Source of the DNA: Oscillospiraceae bacterium
Lineage (GTDB): Bacteria > Bacillota > Clostridia > Oscillospirales > CAG-272
Length of the DNA stretch: 64,000 nucleotides
Reading direction: 5' to 3'
Assembly: GCA_015065005.1 (NCBI GenBank)
Contig: SVRE01000001.1
Location: forward strand, 10,593-74,592
Positions 5,201 through 30,559 of this stretch are shown piece by piece. The notes under the pieces were generated by a model that was given only the letters and a program-made list of their open reading frames with translations, made no database searches and was not told where the DNA came from. Within the stretch, counting starts at the first letter, position 1. Each line of letters starts with the position of its first letter. The translations under genes and the position numbers were made by a program.

Positions 5201-6442
5201 ATGGCAATTATTAATGTAAGAGATTTTGGCGCTAAGGGTGACGGTTGTACCCTTGATACAAAGGCGATACAGGCGGCAATTGACGCTGCTAATGCTGGGG
5301 ACAGCGTTGTGCTTGGTGGCAAGGGCTTTTTTAACTGCGGTACACTTCGCTTAAAGAGCAATATTAAATTTGTTATTGAGCAGGGCTCTGAGCTTTGCGG
5401 CTCAAGAAACTTGGCACATTATTACGCAAACGGCTTTTACCACAACGAAATGGTTGATACAATTTCCTTGATTTACGCACTTGACTGCGAAAATATTGAA
5501 ATTTGCGGCGGCGGTAAAATCCAAATGAACGGTGATGCCTTTGTTAACTTTGACGCTTGGTGTCCAAGTGAGGTAAACAGAGATGAAATGGTAAAGGAGT
5601 TTGAGGAGCAGACTGTTGTGGGCCCTGAAACAAAGGTAACACGCCCATCCCAGCCAATTTTCTTTAATAATTGCAAAAACATACATATTCACGACCTTAA
5701 GGTGTTTAATTCTCCTTGCTGGACCTTTACATTTTCCAACTGTGACGGTATTATGTTCGAAAAAATGTATGTTGACAACCACAACAGAATTGCAAATAAT
5801 GACGGTGTTCATTTCAGCGCGTCTAAGAACGGTGTTGTAAGAAACTGCACCTTCTTGTGCGGAGATGACTGCTTTGCCGCAACCTGTATTACAAATACAG
5901 AGGGGGTTTGTGAGAATATAGAGGTTAGTGACTGCTTAATGTCCTCTCGCTCTGCGGCTATCCGCTTTGGTCATCTTTACAGTAAGATAAGAAATATCCT
6001 TGTTAAGGATATTAAAATTTTGCCATCTAACAGGGGTATTTCTATATTCTCAGGAGATGACGGAATTGTAGAAAACGTTAAGGTTTCAAATGTTCAGTGT
6101 GAAACACGCATCCACGCAGGCGGCTGGTGGGGCAAGGGAGAGGGCTTCATTATTTGCGCTGCAAACGCAGGCGGTCAGATAAAGGATGTTACTATTGAAA
6201 ATTGCCACTTTATAGAGGAAAACCCATCTATCGTTGCAGGAACAGAGGGTAATGTTGACGGTGTTAAGCTTGTTAACTGTACATTTGAGTATAAGGAAGG
6301 CTCAACACATCCATACTTTAAAAACAAAATGGACCTCCAGCCAAATATTCCACAGCTTCAAAAGGCGCCATTTAACACAGGTGATACCCTTTATGTGTTT
6401 GGCAGCGAAAACGTAACTTTAAATGGAGAAGCGGTTAAATGA
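5201..6442 (+). CDS. glycoside hydrolase family 28-like (polygalacturonase-type right-handed beta-helix)
   Basis: N-terminal INVRDFGAKGDGxTLDTKAIQAAID, plus NNDGVHF, CGDDCFA and AIRFG motifs typical of GH28/pectate-lyase-fold enzymes. Confidence 0.7.
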   Translation: MAIINVRDFGAKGDGCTLDTKAIQAAIDAANAGDSVVLGGKGFFNCGTLRLKSNIKFVIEQGSELCGSRNLAHYYANGFYHNEMVDTISLIYALDCENIEICGGGKIQMNGDAFVNFDAWCPSEVNRDEMVKEFEEQTVVGPETKVTRPSQPIFFNNCKNIHIHDLKVFNSPCWTFTFSNCDGIMFEKMYVDNHNRIANNDGVHFSASKNGVVRNCTFLCGDDCFAATCITNTEGVCENIEVSDCLMSSRSAAIRFGHLYSKIRNILVKDIKILPSNRGISIFSGDDGIVENVKVSNVQCETRIHAGGWWGKGEGFIICAANAGGQIKDVTIENCHFIEENPSIVAGTEGNVDGVKLVNCTFEYKEGSTHPYFKNKMDLQPNIPQLQKAPFNTGDTLYVFGSENVTLNGEAVK

Positions 6443-9685: not shown

Positions 9686-10921
9686 ATGGAAAAGGTTAGA
9701 ATGGGTATAATCGGCTTTGGCTGTCGCGCTTACGGTATGATGGACATACTGCTTGGCTTTGATGATGTGGAAATTACAGCCGTTTGTGATAAATATGAGG
9801 ACAGGCGTGATAATGCGCAGAAAAGAGTAACCGAGAAAAAGGGAAATGTTCCCTTTGCAACCACTGATTACAAGGCGCTTTTGGCACGTGAGGATGTTGA
9901 TGCGGTTTATATCGCTACTGACTGGGAAATGCATTTCCCGATTGCAATAGATTCAATGCGCGCAGGCAAGGCGGTTGCCTTGGAGGTTGGCGGCGCATAC
10001 TGCGTACAGGATTGCTATGATCTTGTTTCCGCTTGGGAGGAAACAAAAACACCGTTTATGTTTATGGAAAATTGCTGTTATAACAGAGATGAGCTTCTTG
10101 CTACCGCTATGGTAAGGAAGGGTCTTTTCGGCAAGATTGTTCATTGCTCCGGCGCTTACGCCCACGACCTTCGCGGCGAGGTAACGGGCGGCAAGGAAAA
10201 CAGGCACTACCGTTTAAGAAACTATTTAAACAGAAACTGTGAGAACTACCCAACACACGAGCTTGGTCCTATGGCTAAGATCCTTGACATTAACAGGGGT
10301 AACCAAATGGTTTCTCTTGTTTCTATGGCAACCCTTTCCTGGGGTATGGAGCAGTATGTTGAGGACAGGCGTGACACAATTAACCCCGACCTTATCGGTG
10401 CTGATTTTGCACAGGGCGACATTATACATACTCTTATCAAGTGTGCAAACGGTGAAACAATGATGCTTAAGCTTGATACATCCTTGCCACGCTCTTATTC
10501 AAGAGAATTTCAGGTAAGAGGAACAAAGGGCCTTTACGAGCAGGATACAAATACCGCATATTTTGACGGTCAGCCTGAGTATTGGTCACGTGTTGAGTAT
10601 GTTGAAAAGTATAAGAACTCTGCTGAAAAATACAAGTCTATGCTGCCTGATGCTTGGCAGGTTATAACCCAGGAGGCTCTTGATGCAGGCCATGGCGGAA
10701 TGGACTACGTTGAATTACGTGAGTTTGTTGACAGGCTTAAGGACGGACGTGAAATGGCAATAGACGTTTATGATGCGGCTGCCTGGATGGTTGTTACCTG
10801 CTTGTCTGAGGAGTCAATTAAGCAGGGTGGCGCTGTTATGCAAATTCCTGACTTTACAAAGGGAGCTTGGAAAACAAGACCGTCACAGGACGTGCTTGCT
10901 TTTAATGAGTACAAGGAATGA
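9686..10921 (+). CDS. Gfo/Idh/MocA family oxidoreductase (GH109-like NAD-dependent glycosidase type)
   Basis: GGAGG precedes ATG 9686. MEKVRMGIIGFGCRAYG Rossmann N-terminus, about 410 aa. Confidence 0.7.
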   Translation: MEKVRMGIIGFGCRAYGMMDILLGFDDVEITAVCDKYEDRRDNAQKRVTEKKGNVPFATTDYKALLAREDVDAVYIATDWEMHFPIAIDSMRAGKAVALEVGGAYCVQDCYDLVSAWEETKTPFMFMENCCYNRDELLATAMVRKGLFGKIVHCSGAYAHDLRGEVTGGKENRHYRLRNYLNRNCENYPTHELGPMAKILDINRGNQMVSLVSMATLSWGMEQYVEDRRDTINPDLIGADFAQGDIIHTLIKCANGETMMLKLDTSLPRSYSREFQVRGTKGLYEQDTNTAYFDGQPEYWSRVEYVEKYKNSAEKYKSMLPDAWQVITQEALDAGHGGMDYVELREFVDRLKDGREMAIDVYDAAAWMVVTCLSEESIKQGGAVMQIPDFTKGAWKTRPSQDVLAFNEYKE

Positions 10922-11595
10922 TGAAAAAAAGAACAATACTTTTATTCTTGGTAGGTATTTTGTCTCTTATTCTTTTGATTTCGTGCAGCTGTGACAAGGA
11001 GGAAAGGACTGATTTTGAGGTTGAATTTCAGACCTATGTTGATAACATAGCAATCCCTTCACAGAATGTGGGAATAGATGGGTATGTTACTTATCCAACA
11101 GCTGAAATGAAAAGACCGGGCTATAACTTTAAGGGCTGGTATCTTGGTGAGAAAAAGTGGGACTTTGAGAAGGATACCGTAACAAAGGATATGACCTTGA
11201 CGGCAAAATGGGAGGCTTATCTTTCCTATGCTGAGGCAAAGGATACAAGCGGCGGACTTTGGGTTGTGGGTTGTGATTTTAAAACAACTGAGATTGTAAT
11301 CCCAAGTGAGCATAACGGTAGAAAAGTAACGGGAATTTACTGGGCATTTGCCGGAAGAACAAAGATAAAGAGCATTGAAATTCCGGACACAGTTACCTAT
11401 ATAAGCTCAAAGGCGTTTAATAAATGTGAGTCTCTTGAAAGCATTACTATACCGAAAGGTGTAGCTACAATCGGGCCGGGTGCCTTTAGCCTTTGCGACA
11501 GCCTTAAGGAGATTTGTTGTGAGGCAGAGGAAAAGCCACAGGGCTGGCATGAGAACTTTAACATGACTGAGGCACAGGTAAGCTTTAATAAATAG
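10918..11595 (+). CDS. BspA-type LRR lipoprotein with Listeria-Bacteroides repeat (short paralog of 3709-5082)
   Basis: MMKKRTILLFLVGILSLILLISCSC lipobox. PGYNFKGWY...MTLTAKW repeat. LRR_5 units. C-terminal CEAEEKPQGW matches CEAQEKPEGW of the 3709 gene. Confidence 0.75.
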   Translation: MMKKRTILLFLVGILSLILLISCSCDKEERTDFEVEFQTYVDNIAIPSQNVGIDGYVTYPTAEMKRPGYNFKGWYLGEKKWDFEKDTVTKDMTLTAKWEAYLSYAEAKDTSGGLWVVGCDFKTTEIVIPSEHNGRKVTGIYWAFAGRTKIKSIEIPDTVTYISSKAFNKCESLESITIPKGVATIGPGAFSLCDSLKEICCEAEEKPQGWHENFNMTEAQVSFNK

Positions 11596-11629
11596 AAAAA
11601 ATTGGCTATCGTTTTGATAGCCTTTTTTA
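11596..11629 (+). terminator. rho-independent terminator
   Basis: GGCTATC-GTTTT-GATAGCC followed by TTTTTT. Confidence 0.75.
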
Positions 11630-11743
11630 TTGTATTTGGTTAAACTATTTATTGGTTTTCATTGACAAACAGAAAATTTTCTGCTATTATGTATAGCAGA
11701 CTATTTCCTTGAGGCGCACAGAACGAAAGGAGATAATCAAAAT

Positions 11744-13111
11744 ATGGGAAAATATTTTGGCACGGATGGCTTCCGCGGTGAGGCGGGAGTCAGTCTAAAT
11801 TCGGAGCATGCCTATAAAATCGGTAGATTTTTGGGCTGGTACTACGGCCGTGACGGAAAGCGCGTGCGCGCGGTAATCGGCAAGGACACAAGGCGCTCAA
11901 GCTATATGTTTGAGTATGCTATTGCCTCAGGTCTTGCTGCAAGCGGTGCGGATGCGTATATGCTACACGTTACTACCACTCCGAGTGTATCTTATGCTAC
12001 AAGCGGGGATGATTTTGATTGCGGAATTATGATTTCCGCCAGTCACAATCCCTTCTATGACAACGGTATAAAGATTGTAAATTCAAGGGGCGAAAAGCTG
12101 GATGATTTAACAATTTCTAAAATTGAAATGTATCTTGACGGCAATCTTAAGGAATTGGGTATAGAAACCGAGGATATTCCTTATGCTAAGGGTGCAGGCA
12201 TTGGAGAAATTGTTGATTATTCCGCAGGCAGAAACAGGTATATCGGTTATTTGATTTCCTTGTCACGCCATTCATTTAAGCATATCAAGGTTGGTCTTGA
12301 CTGTGCAAACGGCGGCGCTTGGATGATTGCAAAAAGCGTTTTTGATGCTTTGGGCGCAAAGACCTATACTATTAATGCTGAGCCAAACGGCTTGAACATC
12401 AATCACGAGGCGGGCTCTACCCACATTGAGCAGCTTTGCAAATATGTTAAGGAAAACAACCTTGACATAGGCTTTGCCTTTGACGGTGATGCAGACAGAT
12501 GTATTGCTGTTGACGAAAAGGGTGAGGTTGTTAACGGCGACCATATTCTTTATATTTTGGGAACCTACTATAAGAATAGGGACTGTCTTGCAAACAATAC
12601 CGTGGTTACTACCATTATGTCTAATCTTGGCTTATATCGCGCACTTGATGATGCGGGCATTAAGTATGAGCAAACAACTGTCGGTGACAGGTTTGTTTAT
12701 GAAAATATGCAGGCAAACGGACATCAATTGGGCGGTGAGCAGTCAGGACACATTATTCTTTCCAAGTACGCAACCACAGGTGACGGTATTCTTACCGCCA
12801 TTAAGGTTATGGAGGCGGTAATTGAATCAAAGGGCACGCTTTCCAAGCTGAAGGCTCCCGTTATGATGCTGCCACAGGTTATTAAAAACGTACGTGTAGA
12901 GAACAAGCAAGCTGTTAAGGACAATTCGGCTGTTCAAAAAGAGGTTGAGGCAGTGAAATTGCTTCTTGGCAACAAGGGCAGAATTCTTCTTCGCGAAAGC
13001 GGAACAGAGCCATTAATTCGTGTAATGGTTGAGGCTGTAAGTGAGGAGGAGTGCAACGAATGTGTTGACAGAGTGGTTGATGTTATAAGAGGGGAGGGCT
13101 TAGCAAGGTGA
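11744..13111 (+). CDS. glmM: phosphoglucosamine mutase
   Basis: MGKYFGTDGFRG start, active-site loop ISASHNPFYDNGIK, 455 aa. Confidence 0.95.
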   Translation: MGKYFGTDGFRGEAGVSLNSEHAYKIGRFLGWYYGRDGKRVRAVIGKDTRRSSYMFEYAIASGLAASGADAYMLHVTTTPSVSYATSGDDFDCGIMISASHNPFYDNGIKIVNSRGEKLDDLTISKIEMYLDGNLKELGIETEDIPYAKGAGIGEIVDYSAGRNRYIGYLISLSRHSFKHIKVGLDCANGGAWMIAKSVFDALGAKTYTINAEPNGLNINHEAGSTHIEQLCKYVKENNLDIGFAFDGDADRCIAVDEKGEVVNGDHILYILGTYYKNRDCLANNTVVTTIMSNLGLYRALDDAGIKYEQTTVGDRFVYENMQANGHQLGGEQSGHIILSKYATTGDGILTAIKVMEAVIESKGTLSKLKAPVMMLPQVIKNVRVENKQAVKDNSAVQKEVEAVKLLLGNKGRILLRESGTEPLIRVMVEAVSEEECNECVDRVVDVIRGEGLAR

Positions 13112-25213: not shown

Positions 25214-28138
25214 ATGGCACGTATAAAGGATTTTGCAAAGGATTTTAACCTTGATATAAAGGACGCTCTTGATTTAATCGAAAGGGCAGGCTTAGGCACA
25301 CGTCAATCCGGTGCTAACATAGAGGCAGATGAAATTTCCGCTGTTGTTAACGTACTTACACTTGAAAACCAGTGCAAGGGTATTGATGATTACCTTGACG
25401 GTAAAAATACAATAACAACCCAAAAGAAGGCTAAGGCTAAAAAGGCTGCACCGAAGGCTGAGACAGAGGAAAAGAAGGAAGAGCCAAAGGCTGAGGCAAA
25501 GAAGGAAGCGCCTAAGGCTGAAGTGAAGAAGGAAGAGCCAAAGGCTGAGGTGAAGAAGGAAACACCAAAGACTGAGGTTAAAAAGGAAGAGCCAAAGGCT
25601 GAGGTGAAGAAGGAAGAGCCAAAGGCTGAGGCAAAGAAGGAAACACCAAAGGCTGAGGCAAAGAAGGAAGAGCCAAAGGTTGAGGTGAAGAAGGAAGAGC
25701 CAAAGGTTGAGGTGAAGAAGGAAGAGCCAAAGGTTGAGGTGAAGAAGGAAGAGCCAAAGGCTGAGGCAAAGAAGGAAACACCAAAGGCTGAGGCAAAGAA
25801 GGAAGAACCAAAGGCAGAAGCGAAGAAGGAAGAGCCAAAGGCTGAGGTTAAGAAGGAAGAGCCAAGGGTTGAGCAAAAGCCACAGTTTAACAAAAATGAC
25901 CGCTTTGCAAAGCCACAGTTTGAAAACAGAGACGGCTTTAAGAAGGACTTTAATAAGGATAAGCCGTTTAATAAGGACTTTAACAAGGACCAAAAGGGCG
26001 GCTTTGAGAAGAAGGAGTTCAACAAGGACTTTAATAAGGACAGAAACAATCAAAACCGCAACAATTTTGGCGGCTTTGACAAGGATAGAAACGAAAAGAA
26101 AACATATAACGTAACTCCAAAGCAGAAAAAGCCTGAGAGCAACATTATTGAAATTAAGACAAAGACAGGAGAAACAAAGGTTGTTGATACAAGAACATCT
26201 TATGTTGACCTGTCCAAGTATGATGAGAAGTTTGACAGCTATGAGGCAACCCACGGCAACTTCGGCGGCGGTGCAGGTAAGCAGAAGTTGAAAAAGCAGA
26301 ATAACAGGGACAGCTTTAATTCCAAGAAGGAAAAAGAGCGCCAGGCTATGGAAAAGATGAAGAGGGCAGCATTTGAAAAGGCAAAGAACACCCAGCTTTC
26401 CATTACCGTTCCTGATGAAATCACAGTTGGTGAGCTTGCTTCCCGCTTGAAGGTTAACTCAGGCGAAATTATCAAAAAGCTTATGATGATGGGTGTTATG
26501 GCTTCTGTTAACGAGGTTATTGACTTTGACACCGCATATCTTATCGGTGATGAGCTTGGTGCAAAGGTAACAAAGGAAGTTGTTGTTACAATTGAGGAAA
26601 AGCTTTTTGAGGAAGAAACAGACGCACCTGAATCATTGGTTGAGCGCGCACCTGTTGTTTGCGTTATGGGTCACGTTGACCACGGTAAAACATCACTCCT
26701 TGACGCTATAAGACACACACACGTTACCACAGGTGAGGCAGGCGGTATTACACAGCATATCGGTGCTTACAGAGTTAATGTAAACGGCAAGGATATTACA
26801 TTCCTTGACACTCCCGGCCACGAGGCATTTACAGCTATGCGTTTGCGCGGCGCCATGGCAACAGATATTGCAATTATCGTTGTTGCGGCTGATGACGGTA
26901 TTATGCCACAGACAGTTGAGGCTATTAACCACGCAAAGGCGGCAGGTGTTGACATTGTTGTTGCTATTAACAAGATGGATAAGCCAACCGCTAACCCGGA
27001 AAATATTAAGCAGGAGCTTACAAAGTATGACCTTGTTCCTGAGGAATGGGGCGGAGATATTATGTGTATTCCTGTTTCCGCACACACAAAGATGGGTATG
27101 GATGACTTGCTTGAAAGCGTGCTTTTGATTGCTGAGGTTAAGGAATTAAAGGCTAATCCGAACAGACTTGCAAAGGGTATCGTTATCGAGGCTAAGCTTG
27201 ATAAGGGTAGAGGCCCTGTTGCAACAATCCTTGTTCAAAACGGTACACTTAAGTCCGGTGATGTTGTAATCGCAGGCACTGCTGTTGGTAGGGTAAGAGC
27301 TATGACAGACCATACAGGCAAGGTACTTAAGGTGGCAGGTCCTTCTGTTCCTGTTGAAATTACAGGTCTTTCCGAGGTTCCTAACGCAGGTGATGAGTTC
27401 AATGCGGTTAAGGATGAAAGGATGGCAAGAGAATTAGCTGAGCAAAGACGTGCAAAGGCTAAGGAGGAAATCTTTAAGGCTAATGCTAAGGTTAACCTTG
27501 ATGATTTGTTCAGCCAGATTAGCGAGGGTGTTAAGGAGCTTAACATTATTGTTAAGGCTGACGTTGGCGGCTCCTGTGAGGCTGTAAAGGCGTCCCTTGT
27601 TAAGCTTTCAAACGCAGAGGTTAAGGTTAATGTTATTCACACCGCAGCAGGCGGTATTACAGAGAGTGACGTTATGCTGGCGGCGGCATCCAATGCTATT
27701 ATCGTTGGCTTTAACGTACGTCCTGATAAGAACGCTATTGACTCTGCCGAAAGACAGAATGTTGACATAAGAACACACAGAATTATTTACGAAATCATAG
27801 AGGAAATTGAAGCCGCTATGAAGGGTATGCTTGCCCCAACCTACAAGGAAGTGATTTACGGTCACGCCGAGGTAAGGCAGACAATCCGTGTACCAGGTGT
27901 TGGTACAATTGCGGGCTGTTATGTACAGGACGGTAAGGTAACACGTTCCGCTTCAATCAGAATCATCCGTGACGGTATAGTTATTGCTGAGGACAAGATT
28001 GCATCCCTTAAGAGATTTAAGGATGACGCAAAGGAAGTCAACGCTGGCTACGAGTGCGGTGTAGGCCTTGATAAGTTTAACGACATTAAGGAAAATGACG
28101 TGCTTGAGGCATTTGGTATGGAAGAGGTAGAGAAGTAA
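25214..28138 (+). CDS. infB: translation initiation factor IF-2
   Basis: G domain [21 protein letters not shown]. 974 aa with a low-complexity Lys/Glu/Pro N-terminal region. Confidence 0.97.
25472..25876 (+). repeat. 15 tandem 27-bp (9-aa, KKEEPKAEV-type) repeats inside infB
   Basis: Counted 15 consecutive KKE(E/T/A)PK(A/V/T)E(A/V) units from aa 87 of IF-2. Confidence 0.9.
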
Positions 28139-28288
28139 TTTGCGTGCGCAAATTACAGCGAAATTCGCCGCCATTGCGGCGAGTGAAATAGTTGTAGGGA
28201 CGGGCGCACACGAGACCACCAAGCCTACTAAAGAGCGGCTTGAGGACCCATATCCCGACTGTCCGCTAATGCGAAAATTGTATAATTG

Positions 28289-28322
28289 AAAAGAGCAAGC
28301 ATTTTAGTGCTTGCTCTTTTGC
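28289..28322 (+). terminator. rho-independent terminator ending the infB operon
   Basis: AGAGCAAGCA-TTTTAG-TGCTTGCTCT followed by TTTG. Confidence 0.75.
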
Positions 28323-28363: not shown

Positions 28364-28392
28364 TTGACAAATAATGATAAATAAGATATAAT
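28364..28392 (+). promoter_or_regulatory. sigma-A type promoter of 28419 gene
   Basis: TTGACA (28364-28369), 17 nt, TATAAT (28387-28392). Confidence 0.6.
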
Positions 28393-28418: not shown

Positions 28419-29318
28419 ATGAAAAGACAGGTAGCGTTTAACAAGCTTTTTAATTTGTTTGTAATTATGGGCGCGGTTTTTGTGTATGGTGCCTGTGTGA
28501 TGCTACAAGACGACCCGGAGCTTGGGAGAAGCGTGGGCGGTGGCATTGTAATGCTTGTAATAGCTGCCCATTTTATACTAGTCCCAACTATTTTGATGCC
28601 TGTCATATATTTGTTCGATGAAAAAGGAGTTACGATTTGCTTTTTATTCTTCCCAAATGAACGATATCTGTGGGAAAATATAGCGGCGATAGAGGCAACT
28701 GACGACAGATCAGACTCCCGTCACCCTATACTTGACTTCTTCTTTTCACGGGTGTTTGAAATATCGGGAGCGGTTGAGGGCAAGGAGCGCTTTTATATGC
28801 AAGGGCACATCCGCAGAAGCCGCCGCACTAAGCGGCTGCTTGAAAAATATTGGGACGGAAAAATAACAGGCTATTTTATTGATGACGTGAAGGCGTGGGT
28901 GAACAAGAAAAAAGGCAAGAAAAAGGAAACGCCTGTTGATTCCGCAAAAATAGCAGCTATGGAAAGGGAATTGAGAGCTGAAGTAAAGGAATGGGTTAAG
29001 CCATATATATCAAAGGCTGAGGAAATTGGCTTAAATGCAGATTTAAAATTTGTGTACACCACAAAAAATTTGAGGGAATCCAACTCAAGACCCAAGGAAA
29101 ATTTCATATACATAGCTATTGTAAGGTTATCAAAAATAGGTGAAAAGGATACCGACAAGGTAGTTGAGGTAAGCGCAGATTTGATGAAGGGCTACACTCA
29201 CAAAAAGGAATACAAGGGAGTAAAAAACAAGCACGCAGGGGATGAGCTTACCTTCTATTTAGAGGACACCTTAAAGGAAATTTCCGGAAACGGCATAGAA
29301 TCATATTCAGACAAATAA
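28419..29318 (+). CDS. hypothetical membrane protein (2 TM + possible bPH-like domain + Lys-rich linker + soluble C-terminal domain)
   Basis: 299 aa. TM segments FNLFVIMGAVFVYGACVML and IVMLVIAAHFILVPTILMPVIYLF. No family motif recognised. Has its own promoter and terminator. Confidence 0.55.
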   Translation: MKRQVAFNKLFNLFVIMGAVFVYGACVMLQDDPELGRSVGGGIVMLVIAAHFILVPTILMPVIYLFDEKGVTICFLFFPNERYLWENIAAIEATDDRSDSRHPILDFFFSRVFEISGAVEGKERFYMQGHIRRSRRTKRLLEKYWDGKITGYFIDDVKAWVNKKKGKKKETPVDSAKIAAMERELRAEVKEWVKPYISKAEEIGLNADLKFVYTTKNLRESNSRPKENFIYIAIVRLSKIGEKDTDKVVEVSADLMKGYTHKKEYKGVKNKHAGDELTFYLEDTLKEISGNGIESYSDK

Positions 29319-29347
29319 AAAATTCGGGGAAGCAGCCCCGAATTTTT
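29313..29347 (+). terminator. terminator hairpin, copy 1 of a 35-nt identical direct repeat
   Basis: AAATAAAAAATTCGGGGAAGCAGCCCCGAATTTTT, identical to 30464-30498. Confidence 0.8.
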
Positions 29348-29405
29348 TGTTTTGTGAATAAACGGCACAAATTTGGAATAAAATATATAAAATTTGGAAA
29401 AATCA

Positions 29406-29433
29406 TTGACATTTTTGGGAAGCGTGGTACAAT
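29406..29433 (+). promoter_or_regulatory. sigma-A type promoter (extended -10) of the GHKL-STAS gene
   Basis: TTGACA (29406-29411), 16 nt, TGgTACAAT. Confidence 0.55.
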
Positions 29434-29458
29434 ATAATTGAAAATAGGGGGTGATATT

Positions 29459-30469
29459 ATGGCAAAAGAAAATAAAGAGCAGATAAAAAGCTATATCTTG
29501 AAGCTTGTTGCGGCAGGTGACGAGGAGCTGGTGAAAAAGACTACGGAAGCCTTTGATGTGTCAAAGTCAACTGTATATAATTACATTAAAGAGCTTTGCA
29601 ATAATGGCGTTATAAAAAAAGAGGGCTCATCATATGACATAGTGTCACAGAGTCAAATGTTTCTTTACGATAACAAGGACTTGGATGAAGGCAGAGTTTT
29701 TGAAAAGGATATAGCGCCAATATTCAAGGGACTTAAAAAAAACGTATTTTCAATTTGGAGATACGCATTTACCGAGATGATGAATAATGCGATTGAGCAT
29801 TCATCGTCTCAAAAAATATTCGTATTTGTTTTCACCAACCCATTGGAATCAACTATAATGATTTCCGACAATGGAGTAGGCATTTTCAAAAACATACAAG
29901 AATATATGAGAAAAGAAAAGGGACAGGAGCTTTCCCTTGACGAGAGCGCAACTCTTTTGTTTGCGGGAAAATTTACTACCGCTAAGGCTATGCATTCGGG
30001 CGAGGGCATTTTCTTCACATCTCATTTGATGGATAGGTTTTTTATTGTTTCAGACGAGGTGTTTTTTTCAAGAAACAACTTCAGCGACTCGAAAAGAAAT
30101 GTAGCCGAACCATCTGGCAGCACGCTTGTTTGTATGTCACTGAACAACCATACAAAAAAGACTACAAAGGAAGTGTTTGACAGGTTTTCCAATGTAGATG
30201 ACGGATTTATAAAAACGCAAATTCCAATAGCTCACATTTTCCCATACGGCAGTCCTGTTTCTCGCTCAGAGGGCAGGCGACTCGGAGAATTGATACTGAA
30301 ATTCAAAGAGGTTGACTTAGATTTTACGGGAGTGGAAGAGGTCGGTCAAGCCTTTTGCCACGAAATGTTTGTGGTATGGCAGGGCAGAAATCCGGACATT
30401 AAGCTAAATGTGTTAAATGCCGAGGATGACGTTTTAAGGATGATTAAAAGAGTTATAAACACAAAATAA
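29459..30469 (+). CDS. wHTH + GHKL (HATPase_c, RsbW/SpoIIAB-like) + STAS-like (DUF4325-type) fusion protein
   Basis: AGGGGGTGA precedes ATG 29459. N-terminal VSKSTVYNYIKELCNNGVI HTH. N-box EMMNNAIEHS, G1 DNGVGIF, G2 SGEGIFF. C-terminal VDLDFTGVEEVGQAFCHEMF matches the DUF4325/STAS-like pattern as I remember it. Confidence 0.65.
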   Translation: MAKENKEQIKSYILKLVAAGDEELVKKTTEAFDVSKSTVYNYIKELCNNGVIKKEGSSYDIVSQSQMFLYDNKDLDEGRVFEKDIAPIFKGLKKNVFSIWRYAFTEMMNNAIEHSSSQKIFVFVFTNPLESTIMISDNGVGIFKNIQEYMRKEKGQELSLDESATLLFAGKFTTAKAMHSGEGIFFTSHLMDRFFIVSDEVFFSRNNFSDSKRNVAEPSGSTLVCMSLNNHTKKTTKEVFDRFSNVDDGFIKTQIPIAHIFPYGSPVSRSEGRRLGELILKFKEVDLDFTGVEEVGQAFCHEMFVVWQGRNPDIKLNVLNAEDDVLRMIKRVINTK

Positions 30470-30498
30470 AAAATTCGGGGAAGCAGCCCCGAATTTTT
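30464..30498 (+). terminator. terminator hairpin, copy 2 of the 35-nt identical direct repeat
   Basis: Identical to 29313-29347, including the last Lys codon and the TAA stop. Confidence 0.8.
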
Positions 30499-30559
30499 GT
30501 TTTTATATTTGCGGGAGGGGTTTTGCCCCTCCCCTACATTTTGAATGTAGAAACGGTTA

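Follow-up and report, generated by a model that had tools for sequence, protein, structure and literature searches.

How would a single polypeptide work that carries a DNA-binding domain, an ATPase resembling the anti-sigma kinases and a domain resembling the antagonists of such kinases? The question is raised by an open reading frame (ORF) in a stretch of 64,000 nucleotides (nt) from an Oscillospiraceae bacterium (assembly GCA_015065005.1, contig SVRE01000001.1, positions 10,593 to 74,592), hereafter the window, in whose coordinates the gene and its surroundings are described. The ORF lies at 29459..30469 on the forward (+) strand, with an ATG at 29459 and a stop codon at 30467-30469, and encodes a product of 336 amino acids (aa) that an earlier sequence-only reading had called partner-switch-like. 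With moderate confidence, we favor an account in which this protein is a one-component transcription regulator that is self-contained and controls its own expression, governed by nucleotide through the engagement of its GHKL and STAS-like domains.

Domain architecture and predicted structure

Domain searches and structure prediction divide the protein into three parts. An N-terminal winged helix-turn-helix (wHTH) domain (residues 1-63; 29459..29647, +), recognized by Pfam, AlphaFold2 and profile comparison, carries the recognition helix SKSTVYNY at residues 35-42. The middle part (residues 64-235; 29648..30163, +) is an ATP-binding domain of the GHKL (Bergerat) family, SpoIIAB/RsbW type, and the last part (residues 236-336, with the stop codon; 30164..30469, +) is a STAS-like DUF4325 domain; both assignments draw on Pfam, AlphaFold2 and Foldseek. 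The Pfam model for DUF4325 (PF14213) matches residues 271-325 over profile positions 1-63 of 64, at 46.2 bits against a cut-off of 23 (E=3.8e-12). The scores for the central domain are 26.0 bits with HATPase_c_2 (PF13581; E=1e-5; cut-off 27.4) and 24.4 bits with HATPase_c (cut-off 26.4), and many wHTH families match residues 6-60, all weakly and below threshold. When 116 diverse family members were scanned in the same way, DUF4325 was detected in all 116, HATPase_c_2 in 84 (at E<=1e-3, the best at 1.3e-10), HATPase_c likewise in 84, and wHTH families in at most 19, with HTH_24, HTH_11 and MarR_2 each found in 14-19 members. Detection across these 116 diverse members shows the three-domain architecture to be conserved in the family as a whole, not a peculiarity of one genome. 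Longer family members (P0216, P0177, P0258 and P0180) contain no informative additional Pfam domains. A search with the family profile matches the wHTH structures of MarR, AspA, LrpA, ArsR and MecI. Searches of the PDB by single sequence and by profile returned GHKL and wHTH relatives only, with no solved DUF4325 structure, and no NCBIfam model matched near its cut-off; the highest score, 26 bits vs 170, came from the HTH region of FTL_1293.

A full-length AlphaFold2 model built from 121 sequences reached a predicted local distance difference test score (pLDDT) of 87 and a predicted template modeling (TM) score of 0.81. The N-terminal domain is modeled at high pLDDT as helices 2-18, 24-32 and 36-48 followed by a beta-hairpin at 52-61, which is a wHTH fold, while the middle region forms the helix-sheet body of a GHKL domain with a disordered lid at residues 174-178, and the C-terminus forms a beta-alpha-beta-alpha-beta-alpha unit. 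In Foldseek comparisons of the full model, the best PDB matches were the SpoIIAB structures 1til, 1tid and 1l0o (E=6e-5 to 1e-4, target TM 0.74-0.78), followed by Hsp90/TRAP1 N-domains, histidine-kinase catalytic domains, RsbW (6m36) and UsfX (8ih8); assignment of the GHKL domain to the RsbW/SpoIIAB type is supported. The C-terminal domain was also modeled in isolation (residues 232-336, pLDDT 79), and the top PDB matches of this model were all STAS domains, namely pendrin, prestin, SLC26A9, RsbS (6jhk), the stressosome and YchM, at modest significance (query TM 0.5-0.57, E=8e-3 to 0.13). The predicted structure supports a STAS-like identity at the level of the fold. A fold search of BFVD gave matches at the domain level only. 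The combination of wHTH, RsbW/SpoIIAB-type GHKL and STAS-like DUF4325 domains that had been read from the sequence is borne out by Pfam, two AlphaFold models and Foldseek.

Transcription unit and putative operator repeats

A mechanically generated ORF list opens the same frame at TTG 29438. The ATG at 29459 is preferred because homologs begin MAKENKEQ and because a ribosome-binding site, AGGGGGTGA, is present at 29446..29454 (+). The ORF and the motifs quoted for it earlier are real: all were located in the 336-aa product, with VSKSTVYNYIKELCNNGVI at residues 34-52, EMMNNAIEHS at 106-115, DNGVGIF at 137-143, GEGIFF at 181-186 and VDLDFTGVEEVGQAFCHEMFVVW at 285-307. The gene is preceded by a sigma-A-type promoter (29406..29433, +) that consists of TTGACA (29406-29411), a 16-nt spacer and TGnTACAAT (29428-33), is near-consensus (11/12 consensus positions matched) and is conserved in orthologs, and it is flanked by Rho-independent terminator hairpins at 29317-29348 and 30469-30498. 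Given a near-consensus promoter of its own and terminators on both sides, the gene is monocistronic, in agreement with the earlier claim of a monocistronic gene with a strong promoter.

The same promoter holds a feature that the sequence-only reading had missed, an operator array phased at 21 bp that, judged from sequence comparison, indicates autoregulation. Three repeats were placed by comparison with related loci. The first, O1 (TTTGGAA, 29372..29378, +), starts 34 nt upstream of the first -35 base; O2 (TTTGGAA, 29393..29399, +) follows 21 bp after O1 and ends 6 nt before the -35 box; and O3, an imperfect copy (TTTGGGAA, 29414..29421, +), follows 21 bp after O2 and lies inside the -35/-10 spacer, at a position where orthologs carry TTTGGAAA or TGTGGAAA. 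The putative operator of the family is an array of two to four direct repeats phased at exactly 21 bp, or two helical turns. Site starts are fixed relative to the first -35 base, at -55/-34/-13/+8 in the window's subfamily and at -34, -13 and +8 in the window gene itself, where two sites bracket the -35 box and one of them fills the spacer. In an alignment of four orthologous promoters, the conserved blocks are the repeat sites, the -35 and the -10. Exact 6-mer direct repeats at a distance of 21 occur at 2.27 per own-upstream region, compared with 0.2 in controls (303 other upstream regions from the same loci) and about 0.03 at other distances. A 21-bp repeat is present in 57/80 own-upstream regions vs 36/303 controls (Fisher p=6e-25).

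The repeat motif varies with the protein. Recognition helices of the form SKSxVYNY are associated with TTGGAA (16/19 loci with paired sites), those of the form SxTxVxRY with TATAGT(TAA) (11/29), and those of the form NQNTVHxY with (A/G)CGAATAA (11/17). Helix class and motif switch together, with zero crossover among 38 motif-bearing loci, and unusual recognition helices pair with private repeats, for example TTATCAGTAATAA and TACTTTATCCCAACTTTCT. This joint switching of repeat and helix points to direct autorepression. Sites of the CGAATAA group are found at -31, -10 and sometimes +11, and those of the TATAGT group coincide with the -10 hexamer and recur 21 bp further downstream. Both motif and phase are retained across 40-60% protein divergence, which is evidence of constraint. 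Negative autoregulation is the simplest reading, because these promoters are near-consensus by themselves and the proximal site overlaps core elements. A further observation concerns the CGAATAA loci L045, L044, L066, L083, L084, L055 and L050, in which an inverted copy of the site, TTATTCGCTTTAA, lies about 100-130 nt upstream, distal to the direct repeats; this arrangement suggests a palindromic nucleation site followed by extension along the direct repeats.

Across 345 kb, comprising the window and related loci, the paired site is essentially confined to the regulator's promoter and always lies on its strand. The pattern TTGGAA-N13-17-TTGGAA has one occurrence in the window, at the regulator's own promoter, and single TTTGGAA sites are at chance level there (24 vs 22.6 expected). 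No second operator target was found in the window or within 8 kb on either side of 20 related loci. A metagenome scan for TTTTGGAA-N13-TTTTGGAA yielded at least 120 environmental chance matches, and among the matches listed none adjoins a homolog. In locus L052, a divergent promoter region (~6175-6361), separated from the downstream regulator by a distance of two to three genes, contains TTTTGAAAA repeated at 21 bp, which resembles the TTTTGGAAA operator; this pair is the sole candidate second target among all loci.

ATP pocket, phospho-acceptor position and proposed mechanism

Residue conservation was computed over 116 family sequences at 30-60% identity. The GHKL motifs comprise an N-box (E106/N110/H114), a G1 box (D137-G139-G141), a lid (K171-T173) and a G2 box (G181-G183). 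Within and around them, N110 and H114, D137, G139 and G141, the lid residues L167, G170 and T173, and H179 and G181 of G2 are invariant, and E106, N109, K171 and G183 are at least 90% conserved. The nucleotide pocket is intact, and because the nucleotide-contacting motifs are invariant we infer that the domain binds ATP. Conservation extends into the C-terminal part, where R269, S270 and F299 are invariant and S268, G296 and Q297 are conserved at 90% or more.

STAS antagonists are phosphorylated at the N-terminus of helix alpha-2, at Ser58 in SpoIIAA and Ser56 in RsbV. Judged by the order of secondary-structure elements in the AlphaFold2 model, strand 284-288 matches SpoIIAA beta-3 and helix 297-310 its alpha-2, and on this alignment the canonical phospho-Ser position falls on G296-Q297. 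An hhalign comparison of the C-terminal profile with SpoIIAA and RsbV gave a weak local VDLDFTGVEEV-VLNLEDLSFM match that is not significant and serves as a check of register only. Because the acceptor position is a conserved Gln, a classical phosphorylation-driven partner switch at the canonical STAS site seems unlikely. R269/S270, where the preceding STAS helix begins, may form an alternative functional site, either a phosphate contact or a non-canonical acceptor. The partner-switch-like label proposed earlier is therefore apt for the architecture and not for a canonical phosphorylation switch, whose acceptor position is taken by the conserved G296-Q297.

We picture the favored autoregulated, nucleotide-controlled regulator as follows. 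The wHTH domains of several protomers would bind side by side on one face of the DNA at the 21-bp repeats and, once bound, would repress their own promoter. The GHKL domain would bind ATP or ADP, and the STAS-like domain, unphosphorylatable at the canonical site, would be its built-in docking partner, by analogy with SpoIIAA, which docks on SpoIIAB and forms a tight SpoIIAB-ADP-SpoIIAA complex. The ATP/ADP state of the GHKL domain would decide whether the two domains engage, and so set oligomerization or DNA affinity. Because the repeats are direct and not inverted, a head-to-tail arrangement of protomers is suggested, which a GHKL-STAS contact in trans would provide. An extended form of this idea, which we regard as speculative and improbable, has the partner-switch contact repurposed as a DNA-templated polymer, in which protomers join head to tail, each STAS-like domain docking on its neighbor's GHKL domain, with one protomer per 21-bp repeat and the ATP/ADP state setting assembly and promoter occupancy. 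If true, it would describe an energy-charge-sensing regulator, a new one-component class of single-gene switch that resides on chromosomes, is spread by temperate phages and has further, still unseen targets.

Several observations weigh against the favored account. The HATPase_c_2 score of the window protein falls 1.4 bits short of the Pfam cut-off. The first site of the TATAGT group is the -10 hexamer, and part of the signal there could be the promoter itself. The covariation of helix and motif is largely between clades, and therefore reflects few independent events and not dozens. A regulator whose sole detectable site is at its own promoter has no visible output. Finally, the case for DNA binding, for the direction of regulation and for dependence on nucleotide is inferential throughout.

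Among the alternatives, the one that survives best, and that we nonetheless hold to be unlikely, is a genuine partner switch. The GHKL domain would then be an active Ser/Thr kinase that phosphorylates S270 or S268 of the STAS-like domain to which it is fused, within one chain or between protomers, or T173 of the lid, and that sequesters a separate partner, such as a sigma factor, while the wHTH domain is autoregulatory only. Such a kinase would suit a GHKL fold whose closest Foldseek relatives include the anti-sigma kinases SpoIIAB, RsbW and UsfX, and it would explain the conservation of R269, S270 and S268, which sit at the N-terminus of the preceding STAS helix, a location expected beside the canonical site in a beta-alpha-beta fold. 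There is also precedent in fused kinase-STAS proteins with real phosphorylation, such as Rv1364c at Ser-600 (PMC9138534), and one locus (L251, 68% identity) encodes a SpoIIE-type PP2C phosphatase (10921-13032) about 4 kb downstream of the regulator, a single, non-recurring case. Against these points stand the conserved Gln at the canonical phospho-Ser position, the lack of a recurrent PP2C or sigma factor gene among the neighbors of 83 loci, and a family that spans Planctomycetota, Melainabacteria and phages, for which there is no obvious single cognate sigma factor.

Distribution, genomic context and relation to known systems

A word-indexed search recovered 1,981 homologs, of which the best 120 are all 328-349 aa long and 59-98% identical; those that have a name at source are called "DUF4325 domain-containing protein", with a single "anti-sigma regulatory factor" among them. 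In a library clustered at 50%, an exhaustive search gave 1,967 representatives at E<=1e-3, of which 506 reach E<=1e-30, nearly all of 330-360 aa and aligned end to end. Numbers of this size are far above what chance would give. At least 567 stretches of species-representative genomes encode a relative. The carriers are mostly Lachnospiraceae, Oscillospirales and unclassified Clostridia of the gut and rumen, including the cultured Parablautia intestinalis, Claveliimonas monacensis and Ruminococcus turbiniformis, and distant members at ~33% identity are annotated in metagenome-assembled genomes of Thermoguttaceae (Planctomycetota) and Melainabacteria. In the literature on DUF4325/PF14213 and on STAS-like domains combined with HATPase, no functional study was found, and DUF4325 is mentioned in tables only.

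In the window, the regulator is preceded by nusA-ylxR-L7Ae-infB and a gene for a 299-aa protein, and is followed by a convergent rny and by flavin reductase, rhamnosidase, DUF1653 and MGS genes; these neighbors are housekeeping genes. In order to survey other contexts, ORFs were called in 83 loci (+/-8 kb) and clustered all against all, and 120 immediate neighbors were scanned with Pfam and PHROGs. No conserved partner gene emerged, as the commonest neighbor family occurs in 9/83 loci at scattered positions, and no Pfam family is found in more than three of the 120 immediate neighbors. No sigma factor, PP2C phosphatase or known operon is adjacent in the window or recurs in the 83 loci. The earlier statement that no sigma factor, phosphatase or obvious target lies nearby holds for the window and for the related loci, and homologs are not consistently part of a known operon in the 83 loci. 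Where the upstream gene is on the same strand, the gap to it almost always exceeds 70 nt, which argues that an independent promoter is the rule in the family. The regulator adjoins rny within its own clade, in L001 (80% identical protein) and in L248 and L249 (73%); L248 shares the infB-side context, while L249 has an ATP synthase operon upstream, and the linkage to rny is gone at <=68% identity.

A second possibility raised by the sequence-only reading was a sensor of a conflict system. For this copy the idea fares poorly, given no PADLOC match beyond the HTH, a housekeeping context and stable synteny with rny. In PADLOC-DB v2, only the wHTH domain resembles known entries, the HTH regions of Csa3, CasR and CARF3 (best E=5.7e-6, residues 9-62), and no defense model covers the GHKL or STAS parts. 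No enrichment of integrase or defense genes was found among the neighbors of the 83 loci, which are a housekeeping mixture; relatives do, however, occur in the phage loci described below. A tblastn search against 50,697 GenBank phage records and 72,556 PLSDB plasmids returned no homologs. Taken alone, these nulls suggest no link to mobile elements, a view corrected by IMG/VR, where 39 viral loci (L209-L247, e.g. L215 6001-7029) encode full-length relatives at 33-49% identity. Clustering and PHROG annotation identify genuine phage modules on both sides of these relatives. In 14/38 analyzed phage loci, the gene lies directly upstream of terS-terL-portal-minor head protein, with a replication initiator, a RusA resolvase and a phrog_36 regulator on its upstream side, and in a second group it adjoins the tape-measure region. 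The phage copies carry their own promoter and a pair of TATAGTTAA operators spaced 21 bp apart, and in 12 phage loci (13-kb loci) no operator pairs were found other than at this promoter. The family is mostly chromosomal and is also carried by temperate phages as a self-contained cassette.

These full-length phage relatives may keep an accessory or conflict role alive for the family, and we give a low probability to the corresponding alternative, that temperate phages have spread the gene for an accessory or conflict role, be it that of a prophage moron, of a kinase resembling abortive-infection or toxin-antitoxin systems, or of an anti-host regulator. The HTH would keep expression low, and the GHKL-STAS part would sense infection or stress and act upon a target in the cell. 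The position of the gene between the replication/regulator module and terS-terL-portal, together with its own promoter and operator, speaks for this, and PHROG phrog_3364, to which no function is assigned, matches residues 27-231 (HTH+GHKL; E=1e-9 to 1e-11), its profile stopping before the STAS-like domain. The patchy spread across phyla, the variable context beyond the genus level and the reported transcriptional coupling of DUF4325 genes to a subgroup of VapC PIN toxins (PMC5499597) point the same way. This alternative is opposed by the PADLOC result, by the absence of a recognizable effector domain and by the empty GenBank phage and plasmid searches. It is further opposed by the rarity of phage genes around chromosomal copies, since the phage module is shared by 1/83 species-representative loci (L041) and terS is found in 1/120 flanking genes, and by the location of the present copy amid housekeeping genes, next to rny down to 73% identity. 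The last alternative, that the 21-bp repeats are bound by another factor or are structural promoter elements while the N-terminal domain makes protein-protein or RNA contacts, would accommodate the sub-cut-off wHTH scores of the window protein and the fact that binding is presumed from comparison, but it is very improbable, as the repeat switches exactly with the protein's own recognition helix, is confined as a pair to the regulator's own promoter and travels with the gene into phage genomes.

Further features lie around the regulator gene. The 299-aa gene (28419..29318, +) encodes a predicted membrane protein with two predicted N-terminal transmembrane segments and no Pfam match, and has its own perfect TTGACA-17-TATAAT promoter (28364-28392). 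In L248 a homolog of this gene (51% identity) precedes the regulator; in L249 one (52% identity) follows the regulator after 22 nt, and the two genes are probably co-transcribed there. Homologs are absent from L001 and 83 other loci; the membrane protein may be a lineage-specific partner of the regulator. The two terminators that bracket the regulator belong to a 41-nt direct repeat, each copy of which comprises last codons, a stop codon and the terminator hairpin AAAAAATTCGGGGAAGCAGCCCCGAATTTTT. Copy 1 (29313..29353, +) insulates the regulator from the upstream ORF, copy 2 (30464..30504, +) is 95% identical to it, and there are no other copies in the window. In the orthologous loci L001 and L249, a related hairpin with a different loop lies upstream of the regulator. 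The repeat fits a rearranged ancestral operon of the regulator and the 299-aa gene, with duplication of the terminator. There is also a 15-nt match between TATAATTGAAAAGAG (28281-28295) and TATAATTGAAAATAG (29433-29447), which are 1152 bp apart, where the spacing of the terminator repeats is 1151 bp; it may be due to chance or may be the trace of a tandem cassette duplication. Further upstream, in infB (25214-28138), the N-terminal region of IF-2 (~25450-25900) contains about 15 near-identical Lys/Glu/Pro-rich repeats, KKEEPKAEV and variants.

Known GHKL anti-sigma kinases and STAS antagonists operate by protein-protein signaling that ends on a sigma factor. Compared with the SpoIIAB-SpoIIAA and RsbW-RsbV pairs of Bacillus, the present protein has a GHKL domain closest to SpoIIAB/RsbW and a C-terminal domain that is STAS-like, as are SpoIIAA, RsbV and RsbS, and by analogy the nucleotide-dependent docking of a STAS domain on the kinase is likely its working principle as well. 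It differs from them in joining these parts on one chain with a wHTH domain, in the replacement of the acceptor Ser by a conserved Gln, and in the lack of a sigma factor or PP2C partner among the genes surveyed; its output appears to be direct DNA binding.

The fusion of kinase and STAS domains, canonically separate proteins, was correctly identified from the sequence, but it is not unprecedented, given Rv1364c (PMC9138534) and SipA (PMC10733313). Rv1364c of Mycobacterium tuberculosis is a single PAS-PP2C-kinase-STAS polypeptide that is phosphorylated at Ser-600 and acts on sigma F, and it shares with the present protein the fusion of an RsbW-type kinase to a STAS domain, for which intramolecular or inter-protomer partner switching has been proposed (PMC9138534). 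Its PAS and PP2C domains, phospho-Ser-600 and sigma F target are all missing here, and a wHTH domain is found instead. In Actinoplanes missouriensis, SipA fuses a kinase-type anti-sigma domain to an antagonist domain, and sigma-SsdA fuses a promoter-recognizing module to an antagonist domain (PMC10733313). These proteins likewise wire such modules directly to transcription proteins, but they form a two-protein, sigma-factor-based system, whereas here a single wHTH protein is accompanied by direct-repeat operators. Stand-alone DUF4325 proteins contain the same Pfam domain (PF14213), but are ~100 aa long and consist of the domain alone beside other genes; examples are the genes coupled to PIN.4 VapC (PMC5499597) and phage DUF4325 ORFs (PMC7924643), and as none is characterized they are no guide to function. 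The phrog_3364 family shares the HTH+GHKL part, with a profile that lacks the STAS-like domain.

If the autoregulated-regulator account is true, these proteins constitute a large unnamed family of nucleotide-controlled regulators, with ~2,000 sequence clusters, including copies on temperate phages, that is commonest in gut and rumen bacteria, and they offer a first functional handle on DUF4325. Its predictions are directly testable, as the operator sites are defined, the residues to mutate are named and cultured carriers exist. Relative to the known kinase-STAS fusions, the new element is the wHTH domain, since Rv1364c, SipA and sigma-SsdA have neither a wHTH nor direct-repeat operators, and the operator layout, with direct repeats at 21 bp across the core promoter, is itself unusual.

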